A stretch of DNA of 64,000 nt, taken from assembly GCA_963749895.1 (NCBI GenBank), contig CAVVOG010000001.1:18068-82067 (forward strand), read 5' to 3'. Positions 21,040 to 60,968 of the stretch are shown here, in pieces (position 1 is the stretch's first letter; each line of letters opens with the position of its first letter). This DNA is from an uncultured Actinomycetes bacterium (GTDB taxonomy: Bacteria; Actinomycetota; UBA4738; HRBIN12). A model generated the notes under the pieces. It had not been told where the DNA came from, made no database searches, and saw only the letters and a program-made list of their open reading frames with translations. The translations under genes and the position numbers were made by a program.

Positions 21040-21067
21040 CTCCCGGCGCCACCGCGCCCGTCCGTGA

Positions 21068-24738: not shown

Positions 24739-24767
24739 CCTCGATCGTCCCTCCGAACGTCAGGACC

Positions 24768-25238
24768 TCATCCCACCGTGAGCGTGCCGACCATCGTGGC
24801 CGGGTGGGCGAAGCAGTTGAAGGTGTAGGTGCCCGCGGGGAGCGCCGGGATCTCGTACACGACCTCGGCGACGCCGTTGATCAACTCGTTGTTCGCGGGC
24901 GCGAACACCGGGGTCACGGTCGTGTCGGTGCCCTCGAAGATCTGAACGTTGTGCGGGATGCCCGTGTCGTCGTTCTTGAACAGGATCGTGAACGGGGTGT
25001 CGGCGGGCGCGGACAGCTCCGTCTCGGCGAACCCGGTGTTCGAGGACCCGACCGGCGCGGTGATCGTGAGTTCGGTCGACGGCGCCGTCGTCTCGGTCTC
25101 GGTCGCGGCCGACGACGAAGTGGACGTCGCCGCGCTGGAGGTCGTGGTCGTCTCGTCGGCCGGGCTGTCGCCGCCCGAGCAGGCCGACAGGACGAGCCCG
25201 GCGACCACCGCGACCGCGGCGATCCGGATGAACCTCAT
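24768..25238 (-). CDS. cupredoxin (plastocyanin/azurin-type blue copper) lipoprotein
   Basis: RBS AAAGGAG; lipobox LSAC; type-1 copper ligands His (PHNVQIF) and C-x2-H-x3-M (FNCFAHPATM). Confidence 0.8.
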   Translation of the reverse strand: MRFIRIAAVAVVAGLVLSACSGGDSPADETTTTSSAATSTSSSAATETETTAPSTELTITAPVGSSNTGFAETELSAPADTPFTILFKNDDTGIPHNVQIFEGTDTTVTPVFAPANNELINGVAEVVYEIPALPAGTYTFNCFAHPATMVGTLTVG

Positions 25239-25341
25239 GCGTGCTCCTTTCGATGCGGATCCCTCGTGAGCTGCGTGGAACGCGAGGGGGGCGCCGGGTG
25301 GCGCCCCCACCATGGTAGGGGCGCCACCCGGCTTGGGGGGG

Positions 25342-27318: not shown

Positions 27319-27336
27319 GGTGCTCCTCCTTCTCTC

Positions 27337-27353
27337 TGGACCTTTCTGGTCCA
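27337..27353. promoter_or_regulatory. perfect palindrome TGGACC-N5-GGTCCA, 19 nt upstream of the nosZ start; candidate operator
   Basis: Read directly from the sequence. It is part of a GGACC/GGTCC-rich array spanning 27337-27485. Confidence 0.4.
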
Positions 27354-27400
27354 TTGCCCCGTCACCGTGGCACCGATCGAACGTCGGAGGGAAGCGCGAA

Positions 27401-39564: not shown

Positions 39565-39674
39565 GAACGGGCCCGTGCCGAGGGCCGCTGCTGCAAGTAG
39601 TGCCGAACGCGTAGCCGGGGTAGGCTACGTGCCGAGCGGGTGGCTGCCGGGCGCCCGCGGGGAGGGGCGTTCGG

Positions 39675-41015
39675 GTGGAAGACACGCGCATCCGTGTGGT
39701 CGTCGGCGAGGGGGACTCCCCTCGTCGCGGACTGCTCCGGTTCGTCCTGGAGGGCGACGGCTACGACGTCGTCGCGGACGCGTCCACTGCGGCCCAGCTG
39801 GCGCGCGCGGTCGCCGACCATGACCCGGAGGTCGTGGTCCTCGACGACGGCATCGGCGCGACGGCCCCTCAGGTCGTCCGCGAGATCTCTCCCCGAACGA
39901 AGATCATCCTGGTCTGGCCCGATGCGGTCGTGCCGATCGGCGGGGACGCACGGGTCGAGCCGTCGCAGGTCCTTCGACAGCTCGGCCCCACCGTCGCGAA
40001 GGTGGCCGCGGGGATCGCCGGACTCACCACGATCGAGCGCCCGGACTGGATCGAGAAGGTTCGCAAGGACCCCGCGACCCTGAGGGAGCGGCTCGAGCGC
40101 AGCGGCGGGCTCCCGAAGCGACCGAGCGTGACGGAGCTCCAGCGGCGCGGCCAGCGCCTGCACCCGGCCTCTCCCTCCGAGGAGGAACGGACCGGCGATC
40201 GAGACGAGGCCGGAGTCGCGCCGGTCCTCCCGCTCGCTGCTGCCGGCGCCGTGATCGGAGCGAGCGGGGCCGCGGAGGCGACGATCGAGCTCCCCGACTC
40301 CCCGGAAGCCGGGGCCCCGGTCCTGCACCTGCCTCCCGATGAGGGAGCCCCCGTGCCTGCAGGCGCCGGGGCGGCCGACGCGAACGCGACGGAGTTCAAC
40401 CGCCGGCTCGGTGCGATGGCGCTCGGAGGGGCGGCGGTGGTCGGCGCGGTCGTGCTCGCGCTGGCGCTCGGCGGCTCCAGGGTCCCGACCGACATCATCC
40501 TGGCGGAGGGTCCCGGGACGGCGGTCGTACCCGGACCGGCGATCGACTCCGGTCTCGACGAGCCCGAACCCCAGGAGCCCGGCGGTGAACCGGGCGAGCG
40601 TCCCGACGACGACGGCACGCAGCCCCCTCCCGGCATCGTGCCGGGAACCACGACCGACGGCCAGGACGACGGAACGCCCGGCGGCGGAACCGACCAGCCG
40701 CCGGCGCCCCCGGGGGGCGGGACCGAGCCTCCGCCGGAGATCCCCGGAGGCGAGAACCCGCCTTCCCCGCCTCCCACGTATCCCCCGTCTCCCCCGCCAC
40801 TCAGCGCCCCCGGAAGGAGCGCGCTGAGCAACCCACACGGTGTCCCACCAGGTCAGACGTCCGACGCGAGGTCGGCCTCCAGCAGCGTCACGGGCCCTGC
40901 CGGCAACGGCGCCCGTCACTGGGTCGACGGTCTCCCGGGCCACGCTGGCGAGCACGGACAGGGGATCGACCGCGGCAAGGGCCTGGACAAGATCCGGGAC
41001 CGCCTGGGCTCGTGA
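39675..41015 (+). CDS. membrane protein with an N-terminal degenerate receiver (REC-like) domain, a single TM and a Pro/Gly/Asp-rich extracytoplasmic region
   Basis: RBS GGAGGGG before the GTG. The REC-like fold lacks the acidic pair (VVVGEGDSP) but keeps an Asp in the VVVLDDGIG context. TM: LGAMALGGAAVVGAVVLALALGG. Confidence 0.6.
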   Translation: MEDTRIRVVVGEGDSPRRGLLRFVLEGDGYDVVADASTAAQLARAVADHDPEVVVLDDGIGATAPQVVREISPRTKIILVWPDAVVPIGGDARVEPSQVLRQLGPTVAKVAAGIAGLTTIERPDWIEKVRKDPATLRERLERSGGLPKRPSVTELQRRGQRLHPASPSEEERTGDRDEAGVAPVLPLAAAGAVIGASGAAEATIELPDSPEAGAPVLHLPPDEGAPVPAGAGAADANATEFNRRLGAMALGGAAVVGAVVLALALGGSRVPTDIILAEGPGTAVVPGPAIDSGLDEPEPQEPGGEPGERPDDDGTQPPPGIVPGTTTDGQDDGTPGGGTDQPPAPPGGGTEPPPEIPGGENPPSPPPTYPPSPPPLSAPGRSALSNPHGVPPGQTSDARSASSSVTGPAGNGARHWVDGLPGHAGEHGQGIDRGKGLDKIRDRLGS

Positions 41016-41040
41016 CGGCCGCTCCGCCATACTCGCACCC

Positions 41041-41886
41041 ATGACGGTGCAGAACGGCCACGGCACCCTCCGCCGCGTCTACGTCCGTCCGCCGGATTCC
41101 GCTGCTGTCCACGCGTGGGCCGACCATGGTTGGCACGCGCCGATCGATCTCGACCGTGCCGCCGAGGAGCACGCGGCCTTCCGCGCGGAGCTGGAGCGCG
41201 CCGGAGCCGAGGTCGTCGTCGGGACGACGCCGGTCCCGGGCGACCCCGACGCGATCTACGCGTACGACCCGTTGCTGCCTACCGACGACGGCGTCGTCGT
41301 CCTGCGTCCGGGCAAGGAGCAACGCCGGGGGGAGCCCGACGCCCTCGCCGCCGACCTCGAGGCCCTCGGCTTGAAGGTCCGTGGGCGGCTCGAGGCGCCC
41401 GCGACCGCCGAGGGCGGCGACATGTTCTTCCTCGACGAACGGACCCTCCTGGTCGGGATCGGCTACCGCACGAACGAGACCGCCGTCGAGCAGCTGCGGA
41501 CGTTGCTGCCCGACGTCGACGTCGCGTCCTTCGACCTGCCGCACCTCAACGGCCCCGACGAGTGCCTGCACCTGATGTCGTTCGTCTCCCCGCTCGACGC
41601 CGACCTCGCGGTCGTGTACCTCCCCCTGATGCCCGTCCGCCTCGTCCAGCTGCTCGCCGCGCGCGACGTCACGCTGGTGGAGGTGCCCGAAGCCGAGTTC
41701 CCGACGATGGGACCGAACGTGCTCGCCCTTGGACCCCGCCTGGCGCTCGCGTTGGAGGGCAACCCGATCACGAAGGAGCGGATGGAGGCGGCCGGGGTCG
41801 AGGTCCGCACCTACCGAGGCGACGAGATCAGTCGCAAGGGCGACGGCGGCCCGACCTGTCTGACCCGGCCCCTCGAGCGGGGTTGA
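41041..41886 (+). CDS. amidinotransferase-superfamily enzyme (dimethylarginine dimethylaminohydrolase/arginine-deiminase-like)
   Basis: Pentein-fold signatures and a C-terminal catalytic Cys in a G-G-P-T-C-L context. Confidence 0.75.
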   Translation: MTVQNGHGTLRRVYVRPPDSAAVHAWADHGWHAPIDLDRAAEEHAAFRAELERAGAEVVVGTTPVPGDPDAIYAYDPLLPTDDGVVVLRPGKEQRRGEPDALAADLEALGLKVRGRLEAPATAEGGDMFFLDERTLLVGIGYRTNETAVEQLRTLLPDVDVASFDLPHLNGPDECLHLMSFVSPLDADLAVVYLPLMPVRLVQLLAARDVTLVEVPEAEFPTMGPNVLALGPRLALALEGNPITKERMEAAGVEVRTYRGDEISRKGDGGPTCLTRPLERG

Positions 41887-45637: not shown

Positions 45638-46777
45638 GTGAGCTGGCCCGTGGTCCTCGCCGCCGGTGGCCCCCGCGAGCGCGGCCGTGCGTACGGCGCG
45701 CAGGCCGCCACGCAGGTCGGGCGATCGATCGAGATCTACGAACGGGTCTTCGCGCACTACGCGCAGCTCCCGTGGGCCGAGGTGCGACGGCGCGCCGCGG
45801 CGTTCGTCGAGGCGATCGACGCGTGCGACGTGCAGCTGCTCCCCGAGCTGGAGGGCATCGCGGAGGGTGCCGGGGTCGAGGCCGAGGACGTCTTGGCGGT
45901 GAACCTGCGGACCGAGGTCATGTTCGGGCTCGACGCCCGCCCGGCACGGGCCGCGATGAAGGAGTGCACGGCGATCGGGCGGCGGCTCGACGATGGGCAG
46001 GTCTGGATCGCGCAGAACTGGGACTGGAAACCGGCGGTACGCGAGACCTGCGTGCTGCTCGTCTGCGCGCCGCACGACCGCCCGGCGTTCGTGACCCTCG
46101 TCGAGGCGGGTCTGTGGGCGAAGTGCGGGGCGAACGAGGCCGGGCTGGGTCTGGCGACGAACGCCCTGCAGTCCAGCCGGGACCACGGAGAGCCAGGTGT
46201 TCCGTTCCACGCGATCTTGCGCCGGATCTTGACGAGCGCGACCGTCGAGGAAGCGCTCGACGCGGTCCGTCGGGGACCCCGTGCGTCGAGCGCGAACTAC
46301 CTGATCGGCGGGCGATCCGGTCGGGTCGTCGACCTCGAGTGTGCCCCCGGAGGGCCCGGGGACCTGTTCGCGCAGGAGGGCCCCGCGCTCGTCCACGCGA
46401 ACCACTTCGTGTGGCCGCTCCGGCCGTTCGAGGATCTGGGCCTGATCGACGGCGAAGACTCCCCCGTACGGCACGCGTGCGCGGCGTCGCGGGCCCCGGA
46501 CACCCGGACGCTCGAGGATCTCCACGCGCTGCTGTCGTCCCACGACGACCCGTCGGGGAGCGTGTGTGCCCACGGGGATCCGTCCCTGGACCCGGTCGAG
46601 GACTACGTCACGGTCGGTTCGTTCGTCGCGGATCTGACGTCCGGGACGATCGCCCTGACCCACGGGAATCCCTGCACCGCACCGTATGAGATCCTCAACC
46701 TCTCGGATCTCGTGCGGCGTGCGCGCGAGGGCGCGGGTCAACCCGCCGCCCCAGGGGCCGATACCGGCATCAGATGA
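45638..46777 (+). CDS. C45-family peptidase / acyl-CoA:6-aminopenicillanic-acid acyltransferase-like Ntn-hydrolase
   Basis: Candidate nucleophile Cys in KECTAIG, followed by IAQNWDW. Confidence 0.65.
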   Translation: MSWPVVLAAGGPRERGRAYGAQAATQVGRSIEIYERVFAHYAQLPWAEVRRRAAAFVEAIDACDVQLLPELEGIAEGAGVEAEDVLAVNLRTEVMFGLDARPARAAMKECTAIGRRLDDGQVWIAQNWDWKPAVRETCVLLVCAPHDRPAFVTLVEAGLWAKCGANEAGLGLATNALQSSRDHGEPGVPFHAILRRILTSATVEEALDAVRRGPRASSANYLIGGRSGRVVDLECAPGGPGDLFAQEGPALVHANHFVWPLRPFEDLGLIDGEDSPVRHACAASRAPDTRTLEDLHALLSSHDDPSGSVCAHGDPSLDPVEDYVTVGSFVADLTSGTIALTHGNPCTAPYEILNLSDLVRRAREGAGQPAAPGADTGIR

Positions 46778-47292
46778 CCTCACCGCATCCCCTCGCCGGC
46801 GTCCGCCGTGCCGCGGTCGCCGTGACCCTGTCGGTGCTCGCCGCGAGCGCCTGCTCCGACGCGGGGATCCCCCGCGGGGTCGATCCGGTCGCGAGCGCCT
46901 CGATCGTCGCGACCGTCCCCCCGCGGATCGGTCGTGAGGGATGCGATCGAGGATCGCCCATCGAGGAGATCGACGGCAGGCTCGAGGTGGAGGGACGGGT
47001 CGCCGGTGATCGCGACGAACTCTGGGCGTTGTTCGCGACCACGGCGCTCCGGTCGGGCGAGCCGGTCGACGTCCGCTGGCGGATCGGAGGTGACCGGTCG
47101 ATGCGCGTAACCCTCGTGGGTCCGAACGATCGCGTCGCTCCGGCCCCACCGCCCAGACCGGAGGCCTCGACAGGGTGGGACCGGCCGGGCGAACCGTGGG
47201 CCGGGCCGATAACGTTCCCGCAGGCCGGGTGCTGGCGCGTGGTCGTCGAGCGCGCGCGCGTCCGGGGGGAGCTGTGGGTCGAGGTCGGGTGA
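46774..47292 (+). CDS. lipoprotein, hypothetical
   Basis: ATG overlaps the upstream stop (ATGA); lipobox LAASAC. Confidence 0.6.
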   Translation: MTSPHPLAGVRRAAVAVTLSVLAASACSDAGIPRGVDPVASASIVATVPPRIGREGCDRGSPIEEIDGRLEVEGRVAGDRDELWALFATTALRSGEPVDVRWRIGGDRSMRVTLVGPNDRVAPAPPPRPEASTGWDRPGEPWAGPITFPQAGCWRVVVERARVRGELWVEVG

Positions 47293-47339
47293 GGGGCGAC
47301 CACCCCGGATCGACGAGCAGCTCGGGGTACCATCGGTCG

Positions 47340-48557
47340 ATGACCCGGAGGCCCCCGCTCCCAGCTGTCGCCCTCGCGCTCACGCTGGCCTTCGGCATCG
47401 CCGCGGCCGATGGGGCGCCGGCGTCGGCCGGTACACGACCGAAGTGGATCACGCGGATCCAGGAGGTCGTCGGCGACCGCCCGTTCTCGATCGCGATCGG
47501 GAACGACGGCGACCACTGGTACCGCCACCGGGCGTGGGTCCGCAGGGCACCCGCCTCGAACGAGAAGCTCCTGCTCTCGATGGCGCTGTTCGAGCGGTAC
47601 GGCACGACGCGGACGATCCGGACCTGGGCGATGGCCGACGGCCAGGTCGTCGACGGGGTCTTGCGCGGCGACCTGTGGCTCGTGGGGCGCGGGAACCCCG
47701 AGATCGACACGCTCGATCTCACTCGGCTGGCCGCTGAGCTCGACGCGGCGGGGATCCGACGGATCCGCGGAGGGGTGCGGGGGGCGATCGGACCGTTCGC
47801 CCGCGACTGGTGGGCGACGGGCTGGCGCGACTACTTCCCCGACGTCTACATCGCGTTGCCGACCGCGCTCGCCTTCAAGCAGAACCGCGACGGCTCCGGT
47901 GGGATGGTCACCGACCCGGAGCGACGGGCCGCCAAGACGATGACCGCACGTCTCGGGGCGCTCGGGATCGGGGTCCGCGACCCCGCGGGCGCCGGGAAGC
48001 CGCCGCAGGGGATGGGACGGCTCGCGTTCGTCGACTCCGACCCCTTGCGAGACGTGGTCCGCCGGATGAACCTGCGCTCACGCAACTTCTGGGCCGAGGT
48101 GCTCGGCAAGCGCCTCGGCGCCGACACGTACGGGAGGGGCACGATCGACAACGGCGCGAGGGCGATCTGTGCCTACGCGGCCGCGCACGGCCTGGACTTC
48201 ACCTGCTACGACGGCTCGGGGTTGTCGTACGCGAACCGTGCCTCGGCGCTCGGGATCGTCCAGCTGCTGTGGGACGCCCAGACGGAGCCGTGGGGCGACA
48301 CGCTGCGCTCGACGCTCCCCGGCGGCGGGCAGGGCACCCTCGAAGATCGCCTCCTCCAGGTCCGCGTGCGGGCGAAGACCGGCACCCTGGACGACGTGAG
48401 CGCCCTGTCGGGATGGGTCTGGCTCCAGCGCTCGAACGAGTGGGCCGAGTTCTCGATCCTGTCGAGCGGCTTCGACGATCAGGCGGCCAAGACGATCGAG
48501 GACCAGATCGTCCGTGTCGTCAGCGCGAACGCGATCGACCCCGACCCCACCGACTGA
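47340..48557 (+). CDS. D-alanyl-D-alanine carboxypeptidase/endopeptidase (PBP4, peptidase S13)
   Basis: Signal peptide, SxxK-type N-terminal region (ASNEKLL), and KTG triad (RAKTGTL). Confidence 0.8.
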   Translation: MTRRPPLPAVALALTLAFGIAAADGAPASAGTRPKWITRIQEVVGDRPFSIAIGNDGDHWYRHRAWVRRAPASNEKLLLSMALFERYGTTRTIRTWAMADGQVVDGVLRGDLWLVGRGNPEIDTLDLTRLAAELDAAGIRRIRGGVRGAIGPFARDWWATGWRDYFPDVYIALPTALAFKQNRDGSGGMVTDPERRAAKTMTARLGALGIGVRDPAGAGKPPQGMGRLAFVDSDPLRDVVRRMNLRSRNFWAEVLGKRLGADTYGRGTIDNGARAICAYAAAHGLDFTCYDGSGLSYANRASALGIVQLLWDAQTEPWGDTLRSTLPGGGQGTLEDRLLQVRVRAKTGTLDDVSALSGWVWLQRSNEWAEFSILSSGFDDQAAKTIEDQIVRVVSANAIDPDPTD

Positions 48558-48583
48558 TCCGATCGAGGCCGGATCACCCGCGC

Positions 48584-50182
48584 TCAGCGTTCGTCAGGGT
48601 TCTCCCGAGGGTGGACGAGGCCGAACGCGTACGCGTCGACGAGCGCCTCCCACGATGCCTCGATGATGTTCTCGCTCACGCCGACGGTGGTCCACTCGGA
48701 CTCGCCGTTCGAGGTGTCGATCAAGACCCGGACCACGGCCCCGGTACCGACGCTCTGGTCGAGCACGCGGACGCGGTAGTCCTCCAGCGACATGTGCCCG
48801 AGCTCCGGATAGTCATTCGTGAGCGCCTTGCGGAGCGCGTTGTCGAGCGCACCAACGGGCCCCTGCCCCTCCGCCGACTCGATGTGACGCGTGCCCTTGG
48901 TCCGGACCTTCACGGTCGCCTCAGCGAGCGGGCCCTCCTCGTCGCCGACCCGCTCCTCCACGTGCACGCGGTAGCTCTCGATGTCGAAGAACGGCTGCTG
49001 CCACCCCGCGGCGCGTCGCAACAGCAGCTCGAGCGAAGCCTCGGCGACGTCGAACGCATAGCCGGCGGCCTCACGGTCCTTGATCTGGGCGACCGCGGTC
49101 GGGATCGCGTCGTCGGGCATGTCGTAGCCGAACTCGGCCGCCTTCATCCGGATCGTGGCCGCACCGCCGTAGTCCGACGCCACCACCCCGCGACGGTTCC
49201 CGACCGTATCCGGCGCGACGTGCTCGTAGGCCCGGGTCAGCCGCGCGACACCGCTGGTGTGCAGCCCCGCCTTGTGGGTGAACGCGTGGCGTCCGGCGTA
49301 CGGCTGGTGCGCGTCGGGCGCCAGGTTCGCGACCTCCGCCACGTAGTGCGCGAGTTCGGTCAGGTGCTCCACGCTCCCGCCCGGGAGCGCGTCGTCGACC
49401 CCCATCTTCAGCACGAGATCGGCGGTGATCGGGATCAGGTCGGCGTTGCCGGTGCGCTCCCCGTAGCCGTTCACGGTTCCCTGCACCTGATACACGCCCG
49501 CGTCGACCGCGATCAGCGAGTTCGCCACGGCGCAGCCCGCGTCGTTGTGGACGTGGATCCCGAGCGCGACCGCCGTCTGCGCCTTGACCTCATGGACGAT
49601 CCGGGCCACGTCGAACGGGAGCATCCCCCCGTTGGTGTCGCACAGGACCAGGCGCTCCGCGCCCGCCTCCTCGGCCGCCTCGAGCACCCGCATCGCGAAC
49701 CCCGGGTTCGCGACGTACCCGTCGAAGAAATGCTCGGCGTCGAAGAAGACTCGCCGACCCTCGCGCCGGAGGAACGCGATCGAGTCTCGGACCATCTCGA
49801 CGCCCTCCTCGATCCCGGTCCGCAGCGCCTCGGTCACGTGCAGGTCCCACGACTTGCCCACCAAGCACACGACCTCGGTCCCCGTGTCGAGGAGACCGCG
49901 CAGGACCTGGGAATCCTCGGCTCGCTCCCCCGCCTTGCGCGTCATCCCGAACGACGTCAGCTGCGCGTGCTTCAGGGTCTCCTTCGTCGCGACCTTGAAG
50001 AACTCGGTGTCGCGCGGGTTCGCACCCGGCCAGCCGCCCTCGACGTAGGGGAAGCCCACCTGGTCGAGCTTGTGAAGGATGCGCAGGCGATCTTCGATCG
50101 TGTAGCTGAGGTCCGCACGCTGTGCGCCGTCACGCAGGGTCGTGTCGTACAGCTCGACGGAGGGTGTCGTCGCCTCGCTCAC
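48584..50182 (-). CDS. cimA: (R)-citramalate synthase-like enzyme of the LeuA family
   Basis: LYDTTLRDGAQ and the YVEGGWPGANPRD motif typical of CimA-type synthases. The GTG start overlaps the leuB stop (GTGA). The N-terminal 128 codons of ORF 48584..50566 belong to leuB in another frame. Confidence 0.85.
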   Translation of the reverse strand: MSEATTPSVELYDTTLRDGAQRADLSYTIEDRLRILHKLDQVGFPYVEGGWPGANPRDTEFFKVATKETLKHAQLTSFGMTRKAGERAEDSQVLRGLLDTGTEVVCLVGKSWDLHVTEALRTGIEEGVEMVRDSIAFLRREGRRVFFDAEHFFDGYVANPGFAMRVLEAAEEAGAERLVLCDTNGGMLPFDVARIVHEVKAQTAVALGIHVHNDAGCAVANSLIAVDAGVYQVQGTVNGYGERTGNADLIPITADLVLKMGVDDALPGGSVEHLTELAHYVAEVANLAPDAHQPYAGRHAFTHKAGLHTSGVARLTRAYEHVAPDTVGNRRGVVASDYGGAATIRMKAAEFGYDMPDDAIPTAVAQIKDREAAGYAFDVAEASLELLLRRAAGWQQPFFDIESYRVHVEERVGDEEGPLAEATVKVRTKGTRHIESAEGQGPVGALDNALRKALTNDYPELGHMSLEDYRVRVLDQSVGTGAVVRVLIDTSNGESEWTTVGVSENIIEASWEALVDAYAFGLVHPRENPDER

Positions 50183-51240
50183 GGGGCCGACCCCTCCACG
50201 ACCAGATCGCCGACCTCGGTCGTCGTGAAGCCCATCTGCGCCGGCGCGCATGCTCGACATCTGCGAGGTCGCGCTGCGGATCCCCCGGTCGACGTCGTCG
50301 GCCGCCTCGTCCTCGCCGAGCTGCCGCAGCAGCATCTCGAGGGCGCCGATCGCCGCGAGCGGATTGATCGTGCCCTTGCCGGTCTCACTGGGCGCGGTGC
50401 CACCGATCGGCTCGAACATCGAGACGCCGTGCGGGCTGATGTTGCCCCCGGCGGCGATCCCCATGCCGCCCTGGATCATCGCTCCGAGGTCCGTGATGAT
50501 GTCGCCGAACATGTTGTCGGTGACGATCACGTCGAACCGGCCGGCGAGTCCAGGAAGTAGATGCACGCTGCGTCGACGTGGACGTAGTCGGTCTCGACGT
50601 CCGGGTACTCGAGGCCGACCGCGTCGACGACCCGCTGATAGAGGTCCCCGGCGAACGTCAGCACGTTCGTCTTGTGGACGAGCGTGACCTTCTTCCGGCG
50701 GCCGGGCCGCATCGCCAGATCGAAGGCGTAGCGGACGATCCGCTCGACCCCGTGGCGCGTGTTGACCGACTCCTGCACCGCGACCTCGTGCGGCGTGCCC
50801 TTGCGGTGGAACCCGCCGGCCCCGCTGTACAGGCCCTCCGAGTTCTCACGCACGACGATCATGTTCACGTCGTCCTCGGTATGGCTCGGTACCAGCGTCT
50901 CGACGCCCGGGTAGCGCACGACCGGTCGCAGGTTGACGTACTGGTCCAGCTCGAACCGGATCCGCAGCAGGAGGTCTCGTTCCAGGATCCCCGGCTTCAC
51001 CCGAGGATCACCGACCGCCCCGAGGTAGATCGCGTCCATCGAACGGAGCCGCTCGAGCTCGTCGTCGGGAAGGACCTCACCGGTGCGGAGGTACCGGTCG
51101 GCGCCCAGGTCGAAGTCCACGAGCGTCACCCCGAAGCCGTGACGCTCCCGTACCGCCTCGAGGACCTTGAGCCCCTCGCCGATCACCTCCGGTCCGGTGC
51201 CGTCGCCGGCGATCACCCCGATCGTGTGGGTCCGGGTCAC
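50179..51240 (-). pseudogene. leuB: 3-isopropylmalate dehydrogenase gene split over three frames (two compensating frameshifts); either a pseudogene or assembly indels
   Basis: The N-terminal 237 aa (ORF 50527..51240) end at a stop after [14 protein letters not shown]. The middle segment [13 protein letters not shown]...GTINPLAAI continues in a second frame (ORF ..50566). The C-terminus ..[13 protein letters not shown] returns to the first frame (ORF 50179..50403). Confidence 0.8.
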
Positions 51241-52784
51241 GGGGTGACCTCGTTCGACTGCGCGGCGTCCTTCGCCTGGACCTGGAGGGCGCGGTTGATC
51301 GCGGCCAGGTAGGCGCGGGCGCTCGCCTCGACGACGTCGGTGGCGACCCCGCGGCCGGTGACGCGCCGGCCGTCGACGTCGAGCTGGACGACGACGTCGC
51401 CGAGCGCGTCGGACCCGCCGGTGACCGAGGAGACGTTGAAGCTCACGAGACGCGCCTCGATCCCCGACGCGCGCGCGATCGCACCCATCGCGGCGTCGAT
51501 CAACCCATCGCCGATCGCCGACTCCTCGACCGTCTCGTCACCCTTCTTCAGGTGAACCGTGGCGCGCGGCTGGAGATGGGTACCGCCCCCGACGACCACC
51601 GATTCGAGCACGAAGAGGTCCTCCTCGGCCGATCCGAGCTCCTCGGCCACGATCGCGGCCAGGTCCTGGTCGGTCAGGCTGATCTTGCGGTCCGCGAGAT
51701 CCTTGAACCGCGCGAACGCGCGGTTCAAGGGCGCCTCGTCCAGGGTGATCCCCAGCTTGTCCAGCGCGTCGACGAACGCATGGCGGCCACTGTGCTTGCC
51801 CAGGACCAGACGGTTGCCCTCCAGCCCGATCTCGAGGGGATCCATGATCTCGTAGGTCTCGCGGTTCGCGAGCACACCGTGCTGGTGGATCCCGCTCTCG
51901 TGCGCGAACGCGCTGGACCCGACCACGGCCTTGTTCGGCTGGACGCCGTACCCGGTGGTCATGCTCACCAGCCGAGAGGTCCGGGTGATCTCCTTGATGT
52001 TCAGCCCGTGGGTCACGCCTAGGTGCTCCCGACGGGTCCGCACGATCATCGCGATCTCCTCGAGCGAGCAGTTGCCCGCCCGCTCGCCGATCCCGTTGAC
52101 CGCGACCTCGACCTGACGCGCGCCGTTCTCGATCCCGGCGAGCGCGTTCGCGACGGCGAGCCCCAGGTCGTTGTGGCAGTGGGTCGAGATCACGACCTCG
52201 TCCGGGAGGTCGTCGCGGACGATCCGGATCAGTTCGCCGAACTCGCTCGGCGTGGCGTACCCGACCGTGTCGGGAACGTTGATCGTCGTCGCCCCGCAGC
52301 GCACCGCGAGGCGATAGCACTCGAGCAGGAAGTCGAGCTCGGTGCGGGTCGCGTCCTGCGCCGAGAACTCGACGTCGTCGGTGTAGGTCTTCGCGAGCTT
52401 CACGTTGTCCTCGATCGCCTGCAGGACCTGCTGGTTCGACATCTTGAGCATCGCGCCCATCTGGATGTCGCTCGTCGAGATGAACGTGTGGATCCGCCAG
52501 CGCTCCGCGCCCTTGAGGGCCTCGGCCGCGCGCTCGATGTCGCCGGTCGCGGTGCGGGCGAGCGCGGCGATCACCGGCCCCTTCATCGAGTCGGCGATCT
52601 CGCGGACGGCCTCGAACTCACCCTGCGACGAGATCGGGAACCCGGCCTCGAGGATGTCCACCTGCAGCCGCGCGAGCTGCTCGGCGATCTCCACCTTCTC
52701 GGGGCGGGTGAGCGCGATCCCGGGGGCCTGCTCCCCGTCGCGAAGGGTCGTGTCGAAGATCCGGACTACGTCAGCGTCGGTCAT
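51237..52784 (-). CDS. leuA: 2-isopropylmalate synthase (short bacterial type)
   Basis: [11 protein letters not shown], HxH metal site and a LeuA dimerisation/regulatory C-terminal domain. RBS GGAAGG. The ATG overlaps the ilvC stop (ATGA). Confidence 0.9.
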
Positions 52785-53795
52785 GCCGGCGGTACCTTCC
52801 TGTCGCTGTCCAACCACGGCATCATCTGGCGCAGCTCGCGCCCCACCTGCTCGAGCTGGGACGTCTGCGCCTCGCGCCGAAGTCGCAGGAAATCGGGGAA
52901 CCCCGCGTCGGCCTCGGCGATCCACCGCTGCGCGAACGTGCCGTCCTGGATCTCGGTGAGGACCTGCTTCATCTGCTGACGGGAGTGCTCGTCAACCACA
53001 CGAGGGCCGCTCTGGTAGTCGCCCCACTCGGCGGTGTCGGACACGCTGTAGCGCATCCACGACAGCCCGCCCTCGTAGATCAGGTCGATGATCAGCTTCA
53101 GCTCGTGGAGGCATTCGAAGTACGCGATCTCCGGCTGGTAGCCAGCCTCCACGAGCGTCTCGAAGCCGTTCCTGATCAGCTCGGAGATGCCGCCGCACAG
53201 GACGGTCTGCTCACCGAACAGATCGGTCTCGGTCTCCTCCTTGAACGTCGTTTCGATGATGCCGGCGCGCGCGCACCCGATCCCGGCGCCGTAGGCGAGC
53301 GCGCGCTCCCGCGCCTTCCCGGTCGCGTCCTGCTGCACGGCGACCAGGCCGGGCGTGCCGATCCCCTGCTCATACGTGCGGCGGACGAGGTGCCCGGGGC
53401 CCTTCGGCGCGATCATCGTGACGTCGACCCCCGCGGGCGGCACGACCGTCCCGAAGTGGACCGAGAATCCGTGGGCGAACATCAGCATGTCCCCGTCCTT
53501 CAGGTTCGGGGCGATGTCCTCGGCGTAGACCTTCGCGTGGGAGGTGTCCGGGAGCAGGCACATCATCGACGTCCGCCTCGGCGACGGCCTCCGCGGTGTC
53601 GAGGACGCGCAGACCGGCCTCCTCGGCCGTCGCGCGACTCGCCGACCCGGGGCGCAGCCCGACCCGAACGTCGTACCCGCTGTCCTGAAGGTTCTGGGCG
53701 TGGGCATGACCCTGGGAGCCGAAGCCGAGGACCGCGATCTTCTGCCCGGTCAACGCGGAGGCGTCGGTGTCATTCTCGTAGTAGATCGTCGCCAT
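52781..53795 (-). pseudogene. ilvC: ketol-acid reductoisomerase gene with one apparent frameshift near 53565-53575; a pseudogene or an assembly indel
   Basis: N-terminus [36 protein letters not shown]...AEADV lies in one frame (ORF 53370..53795). [22 protein letters not shown]... to the C-terminus lies in another (ORF 52781..53707). The overall length is not a multiple of 3. Confidence 0.8.
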
Positions 53796-53841
53796 CTGAC
53801 TCCGTTCCTTCCTGTGTACGGCCTGTGAGGTGAGGTGGACG

Positions 53842-54372
53842 TCAGCCGATCGCGCTCTTCAGGACGCGTTCGCGGATCCCGCGATCGCCACGCGCCAGGG
53901 CGATGCGACCCGTCCGCGAGAGCTCCACGATCCCGAAGTCCTCGACCAGCTCGAGCAGCGCCTGGAGCTTGTCCGGCTTGCCGGTCGCCTCCAAGGTGAG
54001 CGTCGCGTGCGTCACGTCGACGATGTTCACCCGGAACACCTCGGCGATCTCCATCACGCGGGCCCGGGCATCGCCGGAGGCACGCACCTTCACCAACATC
54101 AGCTCGCGCTCGACGGCCGAGCCCGGCTCGTGCTCGAGGATCTTGATGATGTTGATCAGCTTGTTCAGCTGCTTCGTGACCTGCTCCAACGGCTTCATCT
54201 CGACGTTGACGACGATCGTCATCCGTGAGACGCCGGGGGTCTCGGTGGCCCCCACCGCGAGCGAGTCGATGTTGAACCCGCGGGCCGCGAACAGCCCCGC
54301 CACGCGGGTCAACACACCGGGCTTGTCCTCGACGAGTACCGAGATCGTGTGCAGCGCATCGCCGTTCGTCAT
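53842..54372 (-). CDS. ilvN: acetolactate synthase small (regulatory) subunit
   Basis: ACT domain [33 protein letters not shown]; the ATG overlaps the ilvB stop (ATGA). Confidence 0.9.
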
Positions 54373-56117
54373 GCGATCGGAGCCTCCGAAGGGTCGGTGG
54401 TGGGCTGGACCTGCTCGGGCCCGAGGATGATGTCGTCGTTCGAGGCGCCGGAGGGCACCATCGGGAACACCATCTCGCCGGGGTCGACGCGGAAGTCGAT
54501 CACCACGCTCCGATCGGTGATCGCGTACGCCTTCTCGATCGCCGCATCGACCTCGTCGGGACTCTCCACCCGAAGCCCGACCGCGCCGTAGGCTTCGGCC
54601 AACTTCACGTAGTCGGGCACGTTGGGGTCGAGCCACACGCCCGAGTAGCGCTCGTCGAAGAACAGCTCCTGCCACTGGCGGACCATCCCGAGGTACCCGT
54701 TGTTCAAGATCGCCGTGACGAACGGGATGTCCTCGGTCCGGCTGGTCGCGAGCTCCTGCGCCGTCATCTGGAAGCAGCCGTCGCCGTCGATCGCGACCAC
54801 ACGCTTCTTCGGCTGGCCGACCTTCGCGCCCATCGCCGCCGGGACCGCGAAGCCCATCGTGCCGAGACCGCCGGAGTTGATCCAGTGCCGGGGCCGCTCG
54901 AACCGCCAGTACTGCGAGGCGTACATCTGGTGCTGCCCGACGCCGCTGACGAGGATCGTGTCGGCGTCCGCCAGGGCGTGCAGCCGCTCGACGCAGTGCT
55001 GTGGCTTCAGCAGCCCGTTCGAGGTGTCGTACCGGTAGGGGTACGTCTCCTGCCACTCCTTCAGCTGGGCGAGCCACGCAGATCGGTCGGGGACCCCACC
55101 CGCCTCGTCCTGGCGCTTCACGAGCTCGGCGGCGAGCTTGCCGATCACGTCCTTGCAGTCGCCGACGATCGGCACGTCGACCACGCGGTTCTTGCCGATC
55201 TCGGCCGGATCGATGTCGACGTGCACGACCTTCGCATGCGGAGCGAACCCGGCCAGCTTGCCGGTGACACGGTCGTCGAAGCGCGCGCCCAGCGCGACCA
55301 GCAGGTCAGCCTTCTGCATCGCGGTGACGGCCGTGTAGTTCCCGTGCATCCCGGGCATACCCAGGCAGAGCTCGTGGGAGTCGGGGAACGCGCCGCGCGC
55401 CATCAGCGTCGTGACGACCGGGAGCTTCCCCGTCGTGGCGAGCTGGAACAGCTCCTTATGGGCGTCAGCCTTGATCACGCCGCCGCCGACGTACAGCACC
55501 GGCCGCTTGGCCTTGAGGATCATCTTCACGGCCTCGCCGATCTGACGGGCGTTGCCCTTCGTCGTGGGCTTGTAGCCGGGCAGCGAGACCCGATCCGGCC
55601 ACTTGTAGTTCACGTCGGCGATCAACACGTCCTTCGGCAGGTCAATCACGACCGGACCGGGGCGGCCGGTGCTGGCGATGTGGAACGCCTCGCGGACCGT
55701 CTCGACGATCTGCGCGGGGTCCTTCACCAGGAAGTTGTGCTTCGTGACGGGCATCGTGATGCCGGTTACGTCGGCCTCCTGGAACGCGTCGTTGCCCACG
55801 ACCGGGGTCGGGACCTGGCCGGTGATCGCGACGATCGGGACGGAGTCCATCTTCGCGTCGGCGAGGGGGGTGACGAGGTTCGTCGCCCCGGGCCCGGACG
55901 TGGCCATGCACACGCCGACCTTGCCGGTCGCCCACGAGTAGCCCTCGGCGGCGTGCCCGGCGCCTTGCTCGTGGCGGCACAGGATGTGGCGGATCGGGCT
56001 CTTGTCGACGAGCGGGTCGTAGATCGGCATGCTCGCCCCGCCCGGGATGCCGAAGATGACCTCGACCCCCTCCTGCTCGAGGGCCTTCAGCAGCGCCTCC
56101 GCGCCGGTCATCTTCAT
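54369..56117 (-). CDS. ilvB: acetolactate synthase large (catalytic) subunit
   Basis: ThDP enzyme. [27 protein letters not shown] start with AGGAGGTG upstream; GDG...NN ThDP motif. The upstream 137 codons of ORF 54369..56528 are discarded. Confidence 0.9.
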
Positions 56118-56437
56118 CCCGCCGCCACCTCCTCGGGACGGTCCTCGACGGGACCGGTCTCGACCCGCCGGACCTGCGCCTGCAGGCGGTGCGCCAGGTT
56201 GCGGCACGCCCGCTCGAACTCCCAGGGGGTCCAATCCCGGCGCCGGGTCTGCAGGACGTCGGGTTCGGTCTCCTCGGAGAACCCGAACCCACCGCCCAGG
56301 TAGGTCACCTCGGAGGCGAGGTAGCGGTCGACGACGGCGCGCGTGGACGGGTCGGCGGCCTCGACGGTCACCTGCGCGGGCCCCTCCCACAGCACGCTCG
56401 CGACCACGGTTCCGTCTCGCTCGAACTCGTACCGCAT
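56114..56437 (-). CDS. small hypothetical protein (107 aa) between the attenuator and ilvB; its stop overlaps the ilvB start (ATGA)
   Basis: Strong RBS GGAAGGAG 6 nt before the ATG at 56437; [19 protein letters not shown]...; no recognisable domain. Confidence 0.5.
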
Positions 56438-56499
56438 GGTGCGCTCCTTCCGTGGCCGGCTCCCGTGGACCCGGCGGTGCTCCGACGATCGGCGGGTAG

Positions 56500-56541
56500 A
56501 AAAAACCCCCCGCGGCGGCGAGGGGCATCTGGCGCGGGGGG
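56500..56541 (-). terminator. intrinsic terminator/attenuator hairpin (CCCCCCGCG-N18-CGCGGGGGG followed by a T6 run on the minus strand) in the ilvB leader
   Basis: Read directly from the sequence (coordinates +/-1). It lies between the leader peptide ORF and the first structural genes. Confidence 0.6.
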
Positions 56542-56568
56542 TCATCGGGCCTCTCGGCCCGCCCGCGC

Positions 56569-56622
56569 CTAGGCGATAAGTACCAGGGTGCTGCGACCCG
56601 TGATCACGGTGCTCGTATGCAT
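56569..56622 (-). CDS. candidate ilv-leu attenuator leader peptide [17 protein letters not shown] (17 aa, rich in Val/Ile/Leu/Thr)
   Basis: Short ORF ending about 25 nt upstream of the terminator hairpin. The same reading frame appears as the tail of the spurious ORF 56569..57609. Confidence 0.5.
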
Positions 56623-56697
56623 GTCCGTCGGACAGTGTGGGCGCGCGGTGCGGAGCGTGTCAACCTCGGCGGCCCAAGGCTCACGTAGCATCACGGG

Positions 56698-57525
56698 ATG
56701 TTCACGAACCACGTACTCGACGCCGGCGGGGTGCGCTGCCGCGTCCTGGTGGACGGGTGGCGCGCCGTATCGCCTCGGTTCGTGTTCCGCGGGTACGACG
56801 AGGACGTCCACGGGCCGCTCGTGCGCCCCGGGATGGACGCGGACGGACTCCTGCCCGGCCGTTTCGCGGCGCTGCTGATCGAGAGCCCGGACGGGCTGGT
56901 CCTGGTGGATGCGGGCATGGGGCCGTTCGCGGGCGAGATGGAGGCCGGCCGGCTCACGGGGGAGCTCGACGCGCTCGGCATCTCCCGGACCGACATCGGG
57001 ACCGTCGTCGTCACCCACGGACACGCCGACCACGTCGGGGGGCTCGTCACGAACGACGGCGTCCCCGCCTTCTACGAGGCACGACACCTCGTCCACCCCG
57101 CCGAGCTGGCCTTCTGGCGCTCTCCGGCGGCCCGGGAGCTGCCGGGCGACGCGGGCGAGCCCGCCCGGGTCGCCTTCGGTGCCCTGCGCGCCGGCGGCCT
57201 CCTGGACGAGGCGACCGGCGGAGCGCCGGTCGCCTCGGGCGTCCGGATCCTCGAGGCCCCCGGGCACACCCCCGGCCACCTCGCCGTCGTGGTCAACGAC
57301 GCGCTGCTGTGGGCCGGCGACGCGATCGTCCACCCGGTCAACGTGCCGCATCCCGAGTGGGTGAGCGCCGCCGACATGGACGCTCGCAACGCCCAGACCC
57401 GCGTGGAGCTGCTCGAACGCGCCGCCGACGACCGGCTCATGCTGGCGGGAAGTCATCTGCCCGTCGAGGGCACGGTCCGCCGCGAGGCGGCCGGATTCGC
57501 GTTCGACATCGCGTCGCCCGGTTGA
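56698..57525 (+). CDS. MBL-fold metallo-hydrolase (lactonase-like), paralogue of the gene at 27489..28352
   Basis: THGHADHVGG motif and the ...APGHTPGH... ligands. It is divergent from the ilv leader. Confidence 0.8.
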   Translation: MFTNHVLDAGGVRCRVLVDGWRAVSPRFVFRGYDEDVHGPLVRPGMDADGLLPGRFAALLIESPDGLVLVDAGMGPFAGEMEAGRLTGELDALGISRTDIGTVVVTHGHADHVGGLVTNDGVPAFYEARHLVHPAELAFWRSPAARELPGDAGEPARVAFGALRAGGLLDEATGGAPVASGVRILEAPGHTPGHLAVVVNDALLWAGDAIVHPVNVPHPEWVSAADMDARNAQTRVELLERAADDRLMLAGSHLPVEGTVRREAAGFAFDIASPG

Positions 57526-57572
57526 CCCGGGTGACCACCCCGAAGCCGGTCCGGCTAGCATGGGGGTACCCG

Positions 57573-59132
57573 ATGCAGGCTTCCATGCCAACGGCGTTCG
57601 AGTCTCCACTCGTCGTCGTCTCGAACCGAGGCCCCGTGTCCTTCAGCCGCGATGAGGGCGGGGCCCTGATCGGCGAGCGTGGGTCCGGCGGCCTCGTCAC
57701 CGCCCTGGCCGGCGTGCTGTTCGAGTCCGATGCCACGTGGCTCGCCGCGGCGATGACGGATGCCGACCGCGAGGTCGCCGCGACCGGCCGGCCGATCGAC
57801 GTCGAGCCCGCCGGACGGGCGTCGTTCGTCGACATCGACCCGGTCCGCTACGAGGGCTACTACAACGGCATCGCGAACCGGGTGCTCTGGCTGATGCACC
57901 ACTACCTGTTCGATCTGGCCTATCTGCCGGCGTGGGACACCGAGACCCGACTGATCTGGAACGACTACCGCGAGGTGAACGCGACCTTCGCGAAGGCCCT
58001 CGACGCCGAACGCGACCGCGACCCCGTCTACCTGGTGCAGGACTACCAGCTGAGCCTGGTCCCTCAGATGCTCCGGGACATGCAACCGAACGCCCGGATC
58101 ACGCACTTCACGCACACTCCCTTCGCCGGCCCGACGTACCTGCGGCTGCTGCCGGCGGGGATGCGCGAGGAACTGCTCCGCGGGCTGCTCGGCGCCGACA
58201 TCCTGGGGTTCCAGGCCGATCGCTGGGCCGAGAACTTCCTGCTGGCCGTCCGCGACACCCTGCACGACGCCCACGTGGACGTGCGACGGCGGCGGATCGA
58301 CATCGACGGCCGGCGGGTGCTGGTGCGCGGCTACCCGATCGCGCTGGACCCCGTGCCGCTGCGCCGCACGTCCACCTCCCGCGAGGTCAAGGAGCTGCGC
58401 CGCGAGTTGGGGGCGTGGCGCGGCGACGCGAAGCTCTTGCTCCGGGTCGACCGGCTGGAGCTGTCGAAGAACATCGTGCGCGGCTTCCACGCGTACGACA
58501 CCTTCCTCACCGAGCACCCGGAATGGCGCGGGAAGGTGCGGTTCCTGTCGATCCTGCCGCGCTCACGCACCGAGATCCCCGAGTACGTGTCGTACGCGGA
58601 GCGGACCCTGGAGACGGCCGCCGAGATCAACGCGCGGCACGGAGGCCAGGACTGGACCCCGCTCGAGGTGAGGACCGAGGAGGACTACATCGGGGCGGTG
58701 GCCGCCTACGGTCTGTACGACACGCTCCTGGTGAACCCGATCTTCGACGGGATGAACCTCGTCGCGATGGAAGGGCCGCTGGTGAACAAGCGCCACGGGA
58801 CCCTGGCGCTGTCGGTGAACGCGGGCGCGTACGGCCGGCTCGGCCGCCACGCGATCGCCCTCAACCCGTTCGACGTCGTCGAGACCGCCGAGGCGATCCA
58901 CCTCGGCCTGACGATGCCGGAGGACGAGCGGACCCGCCGGGCCCGAGGGCTGATGCGCTCGGTCCTCGCCAGCAGCCCGACCCGATGGCTCACGGCGCAG
59001 CTGCGAGATCTCGACGCGGTCCGCGGGGTCGTCGCACGTCCTCGTCCCAAGCCGTTCGCGGAGGAGCCGTTCGACGGCGAGCCGGCGGTGCCCGACGAGC
59101 TGAACGGCGGGCTCCACAGGCCCGAGGGCTGA
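57573..59132 (+). CDS. otsA: alpha,alpha-trehalose-phosphate synthase (GT20)
   Basis: LVVVSNRGP start region and GT20 motifs (LWLMHHYLF, VQDYQLSLVPQMLR, HFTHTPFAG); the upstream part of ORF 56637..59132 is discarded. Confidence 0.85.
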   Translation: MQASMPTAFESPLVVVSNRGPVSFSRDEGGALIGERGSGGLVTALAGVLFESDATWLAAAMTDADREVAATGRPIDVEPAGRASFVDIDPVRYEGYYNGIANRVLWLMHHYLFDLAYLPAWDTETRLIWNDYREVNATFAKALDAERDRDPVYLVQDYQLSLVPQMLRDMQPNARITHFTHTPFAGPTYLRLLPAGMREELLRGLLGADILGFQADRWAENFLLAVRDTLHDAHVDVRRRRIDIDGRRVLVRGYPIALDPVPLRRTSTSREVKELRRELGAWRGDAKLLLRVDRLELSKNIVRGFHAYDTFLTEHPEWRGKVRFLSILPRSRTEIPEYVSYAERTLETAAEINARHGGQDWTPLEVRTEEDYIGAVAAYGLYDTLLVNPIFDGMNLVAMEGPLVNKRHGTLALSVNAGAYGRLGRHAIALNPFDVVETAEAIHLGLTMPEDERTRRARGLMRSVLASSPTRWLTAQLRDLDAVRGVVARPRPKPFAEEPFDGEPAVPDELNGGLHRPEG

Positions 59133-59133
59133 G

Positions 59134-60948
59134 TCAGCGTCGCACGCGGACGCGGCGGGCCAGACGGGGGCGACGATCCGCCGGGCCGACCTCCCCCCGG
59201 CTGAGGTTCATCGCGGTGCCGATCAGCGACACGTGTGAGAACGCCTGAGGGAAGTTGCCGACCAAGCGGCGCCGGACCGGGTCGTACTCCTCGGAAAGGA
59301 GCCCCAGGTCGGTGCGAACGTCGAGCACGCGCTCGAACAGCTCTCGCGCCTCGTCGGTCCGACCCTGGAGCGCCAGGCAGTCGGCGAGCCAGCACGTGCA
59401 CGGGAGGAACGCGCCCTCGCTTCCGGGCAGACCGTCGACGTGGGACCCGGTGTCGTAGCGCAGGACGAACCCGTCCGCCAGCAGCCGTTCCGCGATCGCG
59501 TCGACCGTCCCGCGGACTCGGGGATCGGTGGCGGGCAGGAACCCGACGAGCGGGATCATCAGGGTCGCCGCGTCGAGGTGCTTCGAACCGTACGACTGGG
59601 TGAATGCCCCGAGCTCGTCGTCGAAACCCTCGCGACAGACCTCGTCGTGGATCTCGGTGCGCAGGGCGCGCCAGCGCTCGACCGGCCCGTCGAACCCGAA
59701 CAGCTCGACGTCGCGGATCGCGCGGTCGATCCCGACCCAGGCCATCACCTTGGAGTGGGTGAAGTGGCGCTGGCCGCCGCGGACCTCCCAGATGCCTTCG
59801 TCGGGCTCGCGCCAGCGCGACTCCAGGGCGTCGAGGATCCGCAGCTCCATCTCCCACGCGGCGGCCTCGTGCGGGAGCCCCTCCCGCGACGCCTGGTGCA
59901 GCAGGTCGAGGATCTCGCCGTACACGTCGAGCTGGAACTGGCGCGAGGCGTCGTTGCCGACCCGAACGGGGAGCGAGCCCTCGTAGCCGGTCAGCCACCC
60001 GAGCTCCATCTCGGGGATCCGGCGCTCACCCGCGAGCCCGTACATGATCCGCAGGTCGTGCGGGTCCCCGGCCACCGCGCGCAGGAGCCATTCGCGCCAC
60101 GCCCCCGCCTCGCGCTCGTAGCCGGCCTGCAGCAGGCTGTACAGGGTGAACGTGGCATCACGGAGCCAGCAGAACCGGTAGTCCCAGTTCCGCGATCCAC
60201 CGAGCTCCTCCGGGAGCGACGTCGTGACCGCCGCGACGATCCCTCCGGTCGGACGGTAACTGAGCGCCTTCAGGGTGATGAGCGACCTCATGACCGCATC
60301 GCGCCACTCGCCACGGTACGTGCACTGCGTGGTCCAGTCGCGCCAGAAGCGCGTCGTGGCGCGGGCCGCGTCCCACGGATCGATCCGCGGCGGCGGAAGC
60401 TCGTGCGAGCGGTGCCAGACCAGGATGAACGCCACACGCTCCCCGGCCCGGACCTGCAGGTCGGACGTGACCAGTCCGGTCACGACCTCGAGCGGGGCGT
60501 CGGTGCGGAGCTCCACGGCGTCGGGGCCCGCGACCGCGGTGACGCTCCGCTTCCCCTGCCGAAGCCACGGGACGGCGGCCCCGTAGTCGAAGCGCAGGTT
60601 CAGCTCCATCCGCATCGGAACCACGCCGCGTAGCCCCTCGACCAGCCGCACCACCCGGGCCTGACCCCGTCGCGGCGTCATGAAGTCGGTCACGCGGACG
60701 GAACCGGATCCGACCTCGTACTCGGTCTCGAGCACGAGCGTGTCGGGACGGTAGGCGCGCCGCGTCCGGAAGGGCTCGGACGGAGCGAGCAGCCAGCGTC
60801 CGTGCTCGGGCTCACCGACCAACGCCGCGAAGCACGCGCCCGAGTCGAAGCGCGGCAGACACAGCCAGTCGATCGAGCCGTCACGGCCGACGAGCGCAGC
60901 CGTGTGCGTGTCGCCGATCAGCGCGTAGTCCTCGAGCGGGAGCGCCAC
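59134..60948 (-). CDS. glycoside hydrolase family 15 protein (glucoamylase/trehalase-like)
   Basis: 604 aa with an (alpha/alpha)6 barrel and GH15 N-terminal beta-sandwich (LIGDTHTAALVGRDGSIDWLCLPRFDS). Confidence 0.85.
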   Translation of the reverse strand: MALPLEDYALIGDTHTAALVGRDGSIDWLCLPRFDSGACFAALVGEPEHGRWLLAPSEPFRTRRAYRPDTLVLETEYEVGSGSVRVTDFMTPRRGQARVVRLVEGLRGVVPMRMELNLRFDYGAAVPWLRQGKRSVTAVAGPDAVELRTDAPLEVVTGLVTSDLQVRAGERVAFILVWHRSHELPPPRIDPWDAARATTRFWRDWTTQCTYRGEWRDAVMRSLITLKALSYRPTGGIVAAVTTSLPEELGGSRNWDYRFCWLRDATFTLYSLLQAGYEREAGAWREWLLRAVAGDPHDLRIMYGLAGERRIPEMELGWLTGYEGSLPVRVGNDASRQFQLDVYGEILDLLHQASREGLPHEAAAWEMELRILDALESRWREPDEGIWEVRGGQRHFTHSKVMAWVGIDRAIRDVELFGFDGPVERWRALRTEIHDEVCREGFDDELGAFTQSYGSKHLDAATLMIPLVGFLPATDPRVRGTVDAIAERLLADGFVLRYDTGSHVDGLPGSEGAFLPCTCWLADCLALQGRTDEARELFERVLDVRTDLGLLSEEYDPVRRRLVGNFPQAFSHVSLIGTAMNLSRGEVGPADRRPRLARRVRVRR

Positions 60949-60968
60949 GGCCCGACACTACCGCGCGG

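Follow-up and report, generated by a model that had tools for sequence, protein, structure and literature searches.

Is leuB of an uncultured soil Actinomycetota, as it stands in the public assembly, a gene that has been lost, a gene that is recoded during translation, or a gene that has been misread? The question arises from a first-pass annotation of the DNA studied here (hereafter the window, meaning the whole 64-kb stretch that was analysed, with a G+C content of 71.4%), which had described leuB, encoding 3-isopropylmalate dehydrogenase, as spread over three reading frames by two compensating shifts, and had offered a pseudogene in an otherwise intact operon or a pair of assembly indels as possible causes. 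To answer it, we consider in turn the frame structure of leuB, the state of the operon and of the rest of the window, the codons at which the lesions fall, and the sequencing technology behind this and related genomes.

Frame structure of leuB

Translation of the three minus-strand frames, together with DNA alignment to two intact relatives, bore out the split: two one-base indels divide leuB into three frame segments (Table 1). The intervals within which the shifts had been placed (about 50530-50550 and 50225-50260), the stop at 50527 and the peptides quoted for each frame were likewise correct. At site 1, TCGCCGGCCGG (50547..50537) lacks one base between 50543 and 50541, and the window aligns as TCGCC-GGCCGG against CCG AGC or CCC GGC in the relatives. 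At site 2, at a spacing of 303 nt (101 codons), a surplus base lies inside GCCGGCGCAG (50245..50236), where relatives read GCCGGCGAG or GCCGGGCAG. The description of the two shifts as compensating is apt for length, since a change of -1 at site 1 and +1 at site 2 leaves the start-to-stop span at 1062 nt, equal to that of the relatives, but not for translation, which in the original frame meets a stop about five codons after the first shift. The uncorrected product is therefore 237 aa long and covers the N-terminal two thirds only of the LeuB model, the region encoded past the premature TGA being absent. In addition, segment 2 shares the frame of cimA, giving rise to a 660-aa open reading frame (ORF; 50566..48584) that runs through into cimA.

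Table 1. Coordinates of the operon genes, of the leuB frame segments and of the three indel sites in the window.
Feature	Position	Strand	Description
ilvB	54369..56117	-	intact; ATGA overlap with ilvN
ilvN	53842..54372	-	intact; ATGA overlap with ilvB
ilvC (ketol-acid reductoisomerase)	52781..53795	-	two frames, split between residues 76 and 77
Indel site 3 (ilvC)	53566	-	extra A just past the first base of variable codon 77
leuA (2-isopropylmalate synthase)	51237..52784	-	intact, 0 gaps against relative; ATGA overlap with ilvC, GTGA overlap with leuB
leuB (3-isopropylmalate dehydrogenase)	50179..51240	-	start GTG at 51240, stop TGA at 50181..50179
leuB segment 1	50542..51240	-	codons 1-233, original frame
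Indel site 1 (leuB)	50541..50543	-	one base missing; first base of variable codon 234 (Ser/Gly)
Premature TGA	50527..50529	-	original frame of leuB, ~5 codons past site 1
leuB segment 2	50241..50540	-	~codons 234-334 (RFDVIVTDN...SSMRAG), shifted frame
Indel site 2 (leuB)	50238..50240	-	one extra base; first base of variable codon 335 (Glu GAG / Gln CAG)
leuB segment 3	50179..50237	-	codons 335-353 and TGA stop, original frame again
cimA (citramalate synthase)	48584..50182	-	intact; TIGR00977, 639 bits

When the three pieces are joined, the corrected LeuB is 353 aa long and scores 494.9 bits against NCBIfam NF002898 (cutoff 393), matching the model in one stretch from position 2 to 343 of 347. 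Five intact metagenomic relatives, likewise 353 aa in length, share 92-94% identity with it, and its alignment with ten relatives is gap-free and of equal length. Because the corrected protein passes the NF002898 cutoff and aligns in this manner with ten relatives, the split gene is not a chance resemblance to leuB. Judged by these matches, it is a typical LeuB-family gene (NCBIfam NF002898 / Pfam PF00180) in a conserved, translationally coupled operon. As a working correction we suggest the insertion of one base between 50543 and 50541, where G or C would give Gly234 and A would give Ser234, and the deletion of one of the bases 50238-50240, which would leave Glu335 or Gln335. These results support the earlier advice to correct the locus before drawing conclusions on the pathway.

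A third indel in ilvC and the state of the window

The claim that the operon is otherwise intact proved wrong. DNA alignment with two related loci, L001 and L002, revealed that ilvC, too, has an indel of one base that the first reading had missed, a surplus A at 53566 (window GTCG[A]TGATG, relatives GTCG-TGATG). The two ilvC ORF pieces match NF004017 (ketol-acid reductoisomerase) at positions 1-82 and 77-332, respectively, and the frame switch at residues 76/77 was seen independently by tblastn. Here the suggested working correction is the deletion of A53566. Over the interval 53800..50170, no internal indels other than these three single-base ones separate the window from L001 and L002.

The remainder of the operon is undisturbed. 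The gene order ilvB-ilvN-ilvC-leuA-leuB-cimA is common to the window and L001, a 19-kb JGI contig that is collinear with window positions 46261..60962 at 85.7% nucleotide identity; leuA, cimA, ilvB and ilvN align with 0 gaps, and all five of the 4-base ATGA/GTGA start/stop overlaps of the operon are preserved. These include the GTGA shared by the leuB stop and the cimA start (50182..50179). The first-pass annotation had pointed to this overlap as coupling cimA to leuB translation, correctly as to its form, and the coupling is of consequence only if the frameshifts are real. Across the 15-kb syntenic block, tblastn searches with 13 L001 proteins found the 11 other genes intact, 9 of them gap-free and none frame-split.

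We extended the survey to the whole window by scoring codon log-odds in all six frames, with confirmed genes as the training set, an approach that supplanted an analysis of GC3 composition that was too noisy for strand assignment. The scan recovers the ilvC break and the first of the two leuB breaks, and flagged few other spots. The candidates at 7232..6326, 21264..18125, 39624..41886 and the tail of 18090..17137 were rejected as frame breaks, being either separate intact genes, with full-length domain matches, or Pro/Gly-rich tails. Pfam scans of about 30 further genes returned full-length, single-stretch matches wherever a family matched, with five genes matching none. Taken together, tblastn, the codon scan and Pfam detected no frame break in the 64 kb beyond the three indels, in a survey that could miss a break in the last ~20 codons of a gene or a close compensating pair. 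The three indels themselves lie within 3.3 kb of one another, a degree of clustering with p ~0.008 under uniformly random placement in 64 kb.

Among the other genes of the window is one for a 1613-aa NAD-glutamate dehydrogenase, which gives a full-length, single-stretch Pfam match.

Strain-variable codons and sequencing technology

Each of the three lesions involves the first position of a codon that encodes different amino acids in different relatives, an arrangement expected by chance with a probability of ~0.02. Codon 77 of IlvC is GTG, ATC or GCG in relatives and reads G-A-TG in the window; codon 234 of LeuB is AGC, GGC or TCx in relatives and lacks a base in the window; and codon 335 of LeuB is GAG or CAG in relatives, with G-C-AG in the window. 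Viewed against the five closest relatives, both leuB sites fall in the 12% of codons that are variable (chance ~0.015). The longest homopolymer run at any of the three sites is 3, which sets these lesions apart from the classic Nanopore error in homopolymers. A haplotype switch, in which the leuB segment between the two indels would come from another strain, was considered and rejected, as the three segments are alike in their identity to L001 and L002, at ~90% each.

As to the provenance of the window, NCBI/ENA records place seven of its proteins, the 237-aa LeuB piece among them, on one contig of 1,135,534 bp. Megabase length in a contig of an uncultured soil lineage implies that long reads were assembled; the platform itself we infer. 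The nearest species representatives among the matches listed are MFD (Microflora Danica) MAGs, a Nanopore-only collection that was assembled with Flye and given one round of Medaka, with no short reads (PMC12313526). Consensus indels in Nanopore data are a recognised source of frameshifted gene calls, and R10.4 data need ~40-fold coverage (PMC9262707).

We then used the six intact operon proteins as tblastn probes against the 24 closest loci, which comprise 8 MFD*.bin 'contig_N' loci and 16 contigs assigned to a short-read class by their names only (k141_, NODE_, k127_, JGI Ga...). Frame-split operon genes occur in 5 of the 8 MFD loci and in 0 of the 16 short-read-style contigs (Fisher p=0.0013); expressed per gene, 5 are visibly split in 48 genes (59 kb) of the MFD set, as against 0 in 76 genes (88 kb) of the short-read-style set. 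In the affected MFD MAGs the breaks involve ilvB together with ilvC, the latter in three frames (L004), ilvB (L006), ilvB and leuB (L021), ilvC (L003), and cimA, which lies in three frames in L012 in a pattern like that of leuB in the window. These breaks are one-base indels, mostly +1, that differ in position and in gene, and no motif common to them was found. A gene from outside the pathway, encoding a peptidase S13, is also broken in L003 and L004. When JGI metagenome contigs were searched for site 1 with a gap of 1 or 2 bases permitted, a single match emerged, in the intact form; this is weak evidence, as the contig belongs to a more distant relative (79% nucleotide identity). No second assembly of the window's own strain turned up.

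Origin of the indels

In our assessment, with a probability of roughly 0.85, the three indels arose as errors in the consensus of a metagenome assembled from long reads, most likely from Nanopore reads only, a judgement drawn from the assembled sequence and its relatives. We favour this reading because comparable breaks are confined to Nanopore-only relatives, because there is no sign of relaxed selection in leuB and ilvC (see below) and because the indels sit at strain-variable codons; it is favoured also because correction yields a full-length, gap-free LeuB and all five operon overlaps have been kept. The concentration of the indels in 3.3 kb and in two genes of one pathway counts against it, as relaxed selection on the pathway would give the same picture; the absence of long homopolymers at the sites also counts against it.

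Alternatively, the indels may be genuine and the genes very recent pseudogenes: a soil Actinomycetota population would just have lost branched-chain amino acid biosynthesis through one frameshift in ilvC and two in leuB, with the rest of the operon left pristine, and would live on amino acids from its surroundings, leuB translation stopping at 50527 and the coupling to cimA being lost. The clustering is the one point in favour of such a loss, alongside which it may be set that both affected genes belong to the same pathway while ~45 other genes of the window are intact. However, counts of private substitutions, that is, those peculiar to the window lineage, do not bear the loss out. The broken leuB and ilvC have 30 and 39 synonymous changes and 4 and 7 nonsynonymous ones, respectively, a balance like that of the intact ilvB (38 and 4), ilvN (27 and 1), leuA (45 and 7) and cimA (62 and 8), and in none of the six operon genes does a private change fall at a residue that is invariant in 14 relatives. 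We thus see no relaxed selection on leuB or ilvC by this measure. Their combined 11 nonsynonymous private changes, where 7.6 are expected from the neighbours' rate, form a slight and non-significant excess (p=0.15) that leans towards pseudogenes and slightly against an assembly error. Had the genes been dead for long enough to fix three indels, many more substitutions should have accumulated in them. Nor have leuA, cimA, ilvB and ilvN of the same operon been touched, and real mutations would have no reason to prefer the first positions of strain-variable codons. Furthermore, like breaks recur in various genes, including one outside the pathway, of five Nanopore-only relatives and in none of the 16 short-read-style contigs, and the LeuB relatives examined as proteins are all full length among the matches listed. 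Frameshift pseudogenes of biosynthetic genes are familiar from reductive or auxotrophic genomes such as that of Mycobacterium leprae, where they likewise arise by small indels among intact neighbours; unlike them, the window genes are free of nonsynonymous excess, further decay and deletions, and their disruptions are not shared by relatives. On balance, we consider a genuine loss unlikely. Of the two causes put forward at the outset, then, assembly indels gain support from the relatives, the selection analysis and the placement of the lesions, and a pseudogene is disfavoured.

Two further possibilities were weighed. Ribosomes might shift by -1 at 50541-50543, by +1 at 50238-50240 and by +1 in ilvC, and such programmed recoding would, like the correction of errors, give conserved proteins of the right length. 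As in prfB (+1), dnaX (-1) and IS transposases, a frame change would then be required for the full-length conserved protein; these known systems differ from the window, which has neither a slippery sequence nor conservation and would demand three shifts, of both signs, in two genes. No slippery heptamer of the form X XXY YYZ is present at any of the three sites and no homopolymer there exceeds 3; the shifts are absent from the relatives examined, with nothing conserved, and the scatter of break positions among the Nanopore relatives speaks of noise. Moreover, we know of no precedent for a housekeeping gene with a pair of opposite programmed shifts and a third in its neighbour. With neither slippery site nor conservation, programmed frameshifting is effectively excluded, its probability being close to nil. 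The other possibility is a variant of assembly error, in which base-calling would fail systematically at a methylated GCCGGC/CCGG motif and strain mixture would play no part. Both leuB sites do fall within a GCCGGC hexamer, and the share of window positions no more than 2 bases from one is only 1.9%. On the other hand, GCCGGC occurs 120 times in the window and the 118 other sites have no detectable frame break; the ilvC site is free of the motif; and at these places GCCGGC would be absent from the true sequence. With the motif missing from the third indel and no common motif in the breaks of the relatives, we rejected it as a shared cause and keep it as a minor lead, one that is very unlikely to account for the errors.

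Returning to consensus error in a long-read assembly, we propose that reads from co-occurring close strains would differ at the affected codon positions and that the assembler or polisher would have rendered this substitution polymorphism as an indel. Two of the sites would have kept both alleles, with G and A giving GATG in ilvC and G and C giving GCAG at leuB site 2, and in the third case, leuB site 1, the base would have been dropped. Such errors might be concentrated in a conserved operon because reads of related populations cross-map there. The true leuB gene would then encode the 353-aa LeuB, and both the 237-aa product and the LeuB'-CimA run-through ORF would in all probability be artefacts. 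The case resembles the consensus indels documented for Nanopore-only MAGs, the problem addressed by IDEEL, proovframe and Homopolish (PMC9262707, PMC12313526), in that one-base indels disrupt otherwise conserved genes on a megabase contig of an uncultured lineage, and in that sister Nanopore MAGs are affected and short-read-style assemblies are not. It differs in that the textbook errors lie in long homopolymers, whereas those described here lie in GC-rich, strain-variable codons and are clustered locally.

The main worth of these observations is as a data-quality flag, and their biological interest is low. Taken as given, the sequence would have the genome scored as lacking LeuB and IlvC, and the organism as an auxotroph for leucine, valine and isoleucine. 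A gene caller would output the 237-aa LeuB fragment that is already on record, together with IlvC in two fragments and perhaps a false ORF fusing LeuB' to CimA. A methodological point is that the errors occur at strain-variable codon positions, not in long homopolymers. Public sister MAGs share the problem, with breaks in ilvB, ilvC, leuB, cimA and the peptidase gene, and auxotrophy predictions from such catalogues therefore need frameshift-aware annotation. Were the indels real after all, which we regard as improbable, they would have caught a first step toward dependence on neighbours for branched-chain amino acids. Much more probably, as far as the sequence allows us to predict, leuB and ilvC are both normal and functional within the ilvB-ilvN-ilvC-leuA-leuB-cimA operon of this uncultured soil Actinomycetota.

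Sequence context of the frame breaks

Both of the one-base indels that split leuB over three frames are enclosed by a GCCGGC hexamer (50547..50537 and 50245..50236). This hexamer occurs 120 times in the window, where 1.9% of positions lie within two bases of the motif, and its presence at both indels may mean that base calling went wrong in a way that depends on sequence context or on methylation. A further frameshift, missing from the first-pass annotation, was identified in ilvC, which is put out of frame by an extra A at 53566 (context GTCG[A]TGATG); when compared with the family profile, its N-terminal piece covers positions 1-82 and its C-terminal piece positions 77-332.

Since cimA and the middle leuB segment share one reading frame and the second leuB indel removes the normal frame change, a spurious 660-aa ORF lies open in the sequence as given. 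Neither the exact 660-aa product nor the 532-aa CimA is present in the protein collection, and the depositor's gene caller therefore picked a different start.

Coordinates of features in the ilv-leu operon region and the putative nos cluster
Feature	Position	Strand	Remark
107-aa ORF	56114..56437	-	ATGA overlap couples it to ilvB
ilvC	52781..53795	-	out of frame
Spurious 660-aa ORF	48584..50566	-	LeuB residues about 226-334, 20-aa out-of-frame linker, CimA
670-aa protein	25342..27354	-	nos_propeller and cupredoxin domains
Cupredoxin protein	24768..25313	-	putative nos cluster
NosD	22623..24122	-	putative nos cluster
ABC ATPase	21922..22809	-	putative nos cluster
ABC-2 permease	21068..21925	-	putative nos cluster

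Gene content of the operon and window

Within 48584..52784 on the minus strand, leuB is flanked on one side by the 2-isopropylmalate synthase gene leuA and on the other by the citramalate synthase gene cimA, which scores 639 bits on TIGR00977. This arrangement implies that LeuB also serves the citramalate route to isoleucine; leuC and leuD were not found in the 64-kb window. The 107-aa ORF coupled to ilvB has no Pfam family on record, is 97% identical to its copy in the relative, a conservation higher than that of ilvB itself, and belongs to a 90% cluster of 22 members drawn from JGI, ENA and Logan. One possibility is that it regulates the ilv-leu operon or is a leader-type protein of it. Elsewhere in the window, at 21068..27354, this Actinomycetota MAG has what appears to be a gene cluster for nitrous-oxide reductase (nos).

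Frame breaks in sister MAGs

In the operon region of contigs from five Nanopore-only sister MAGs (MFD*.bin; L003, L004, L006, L012 and L021; about 5000-13900 of each locus), one-base frame breaks were found in the peptidase S13 gene as well as in ilvB, ilvC, leuB and cimA; at least four of these breaks fall in L004, and the cimA of L012 holds a 'compensating pair'. The leuB of L004 is 80% identical to that of the window over the N-terminal 700 nt and 90% identical over the 303-nt middle segment (50241..50540), a contrast that could reflect stronger conservation there or past recombination and that has no bearing on the window's own nearest neighbours. Auxotrophy calls made from the public records of these five MAGs would likewise be wrong.
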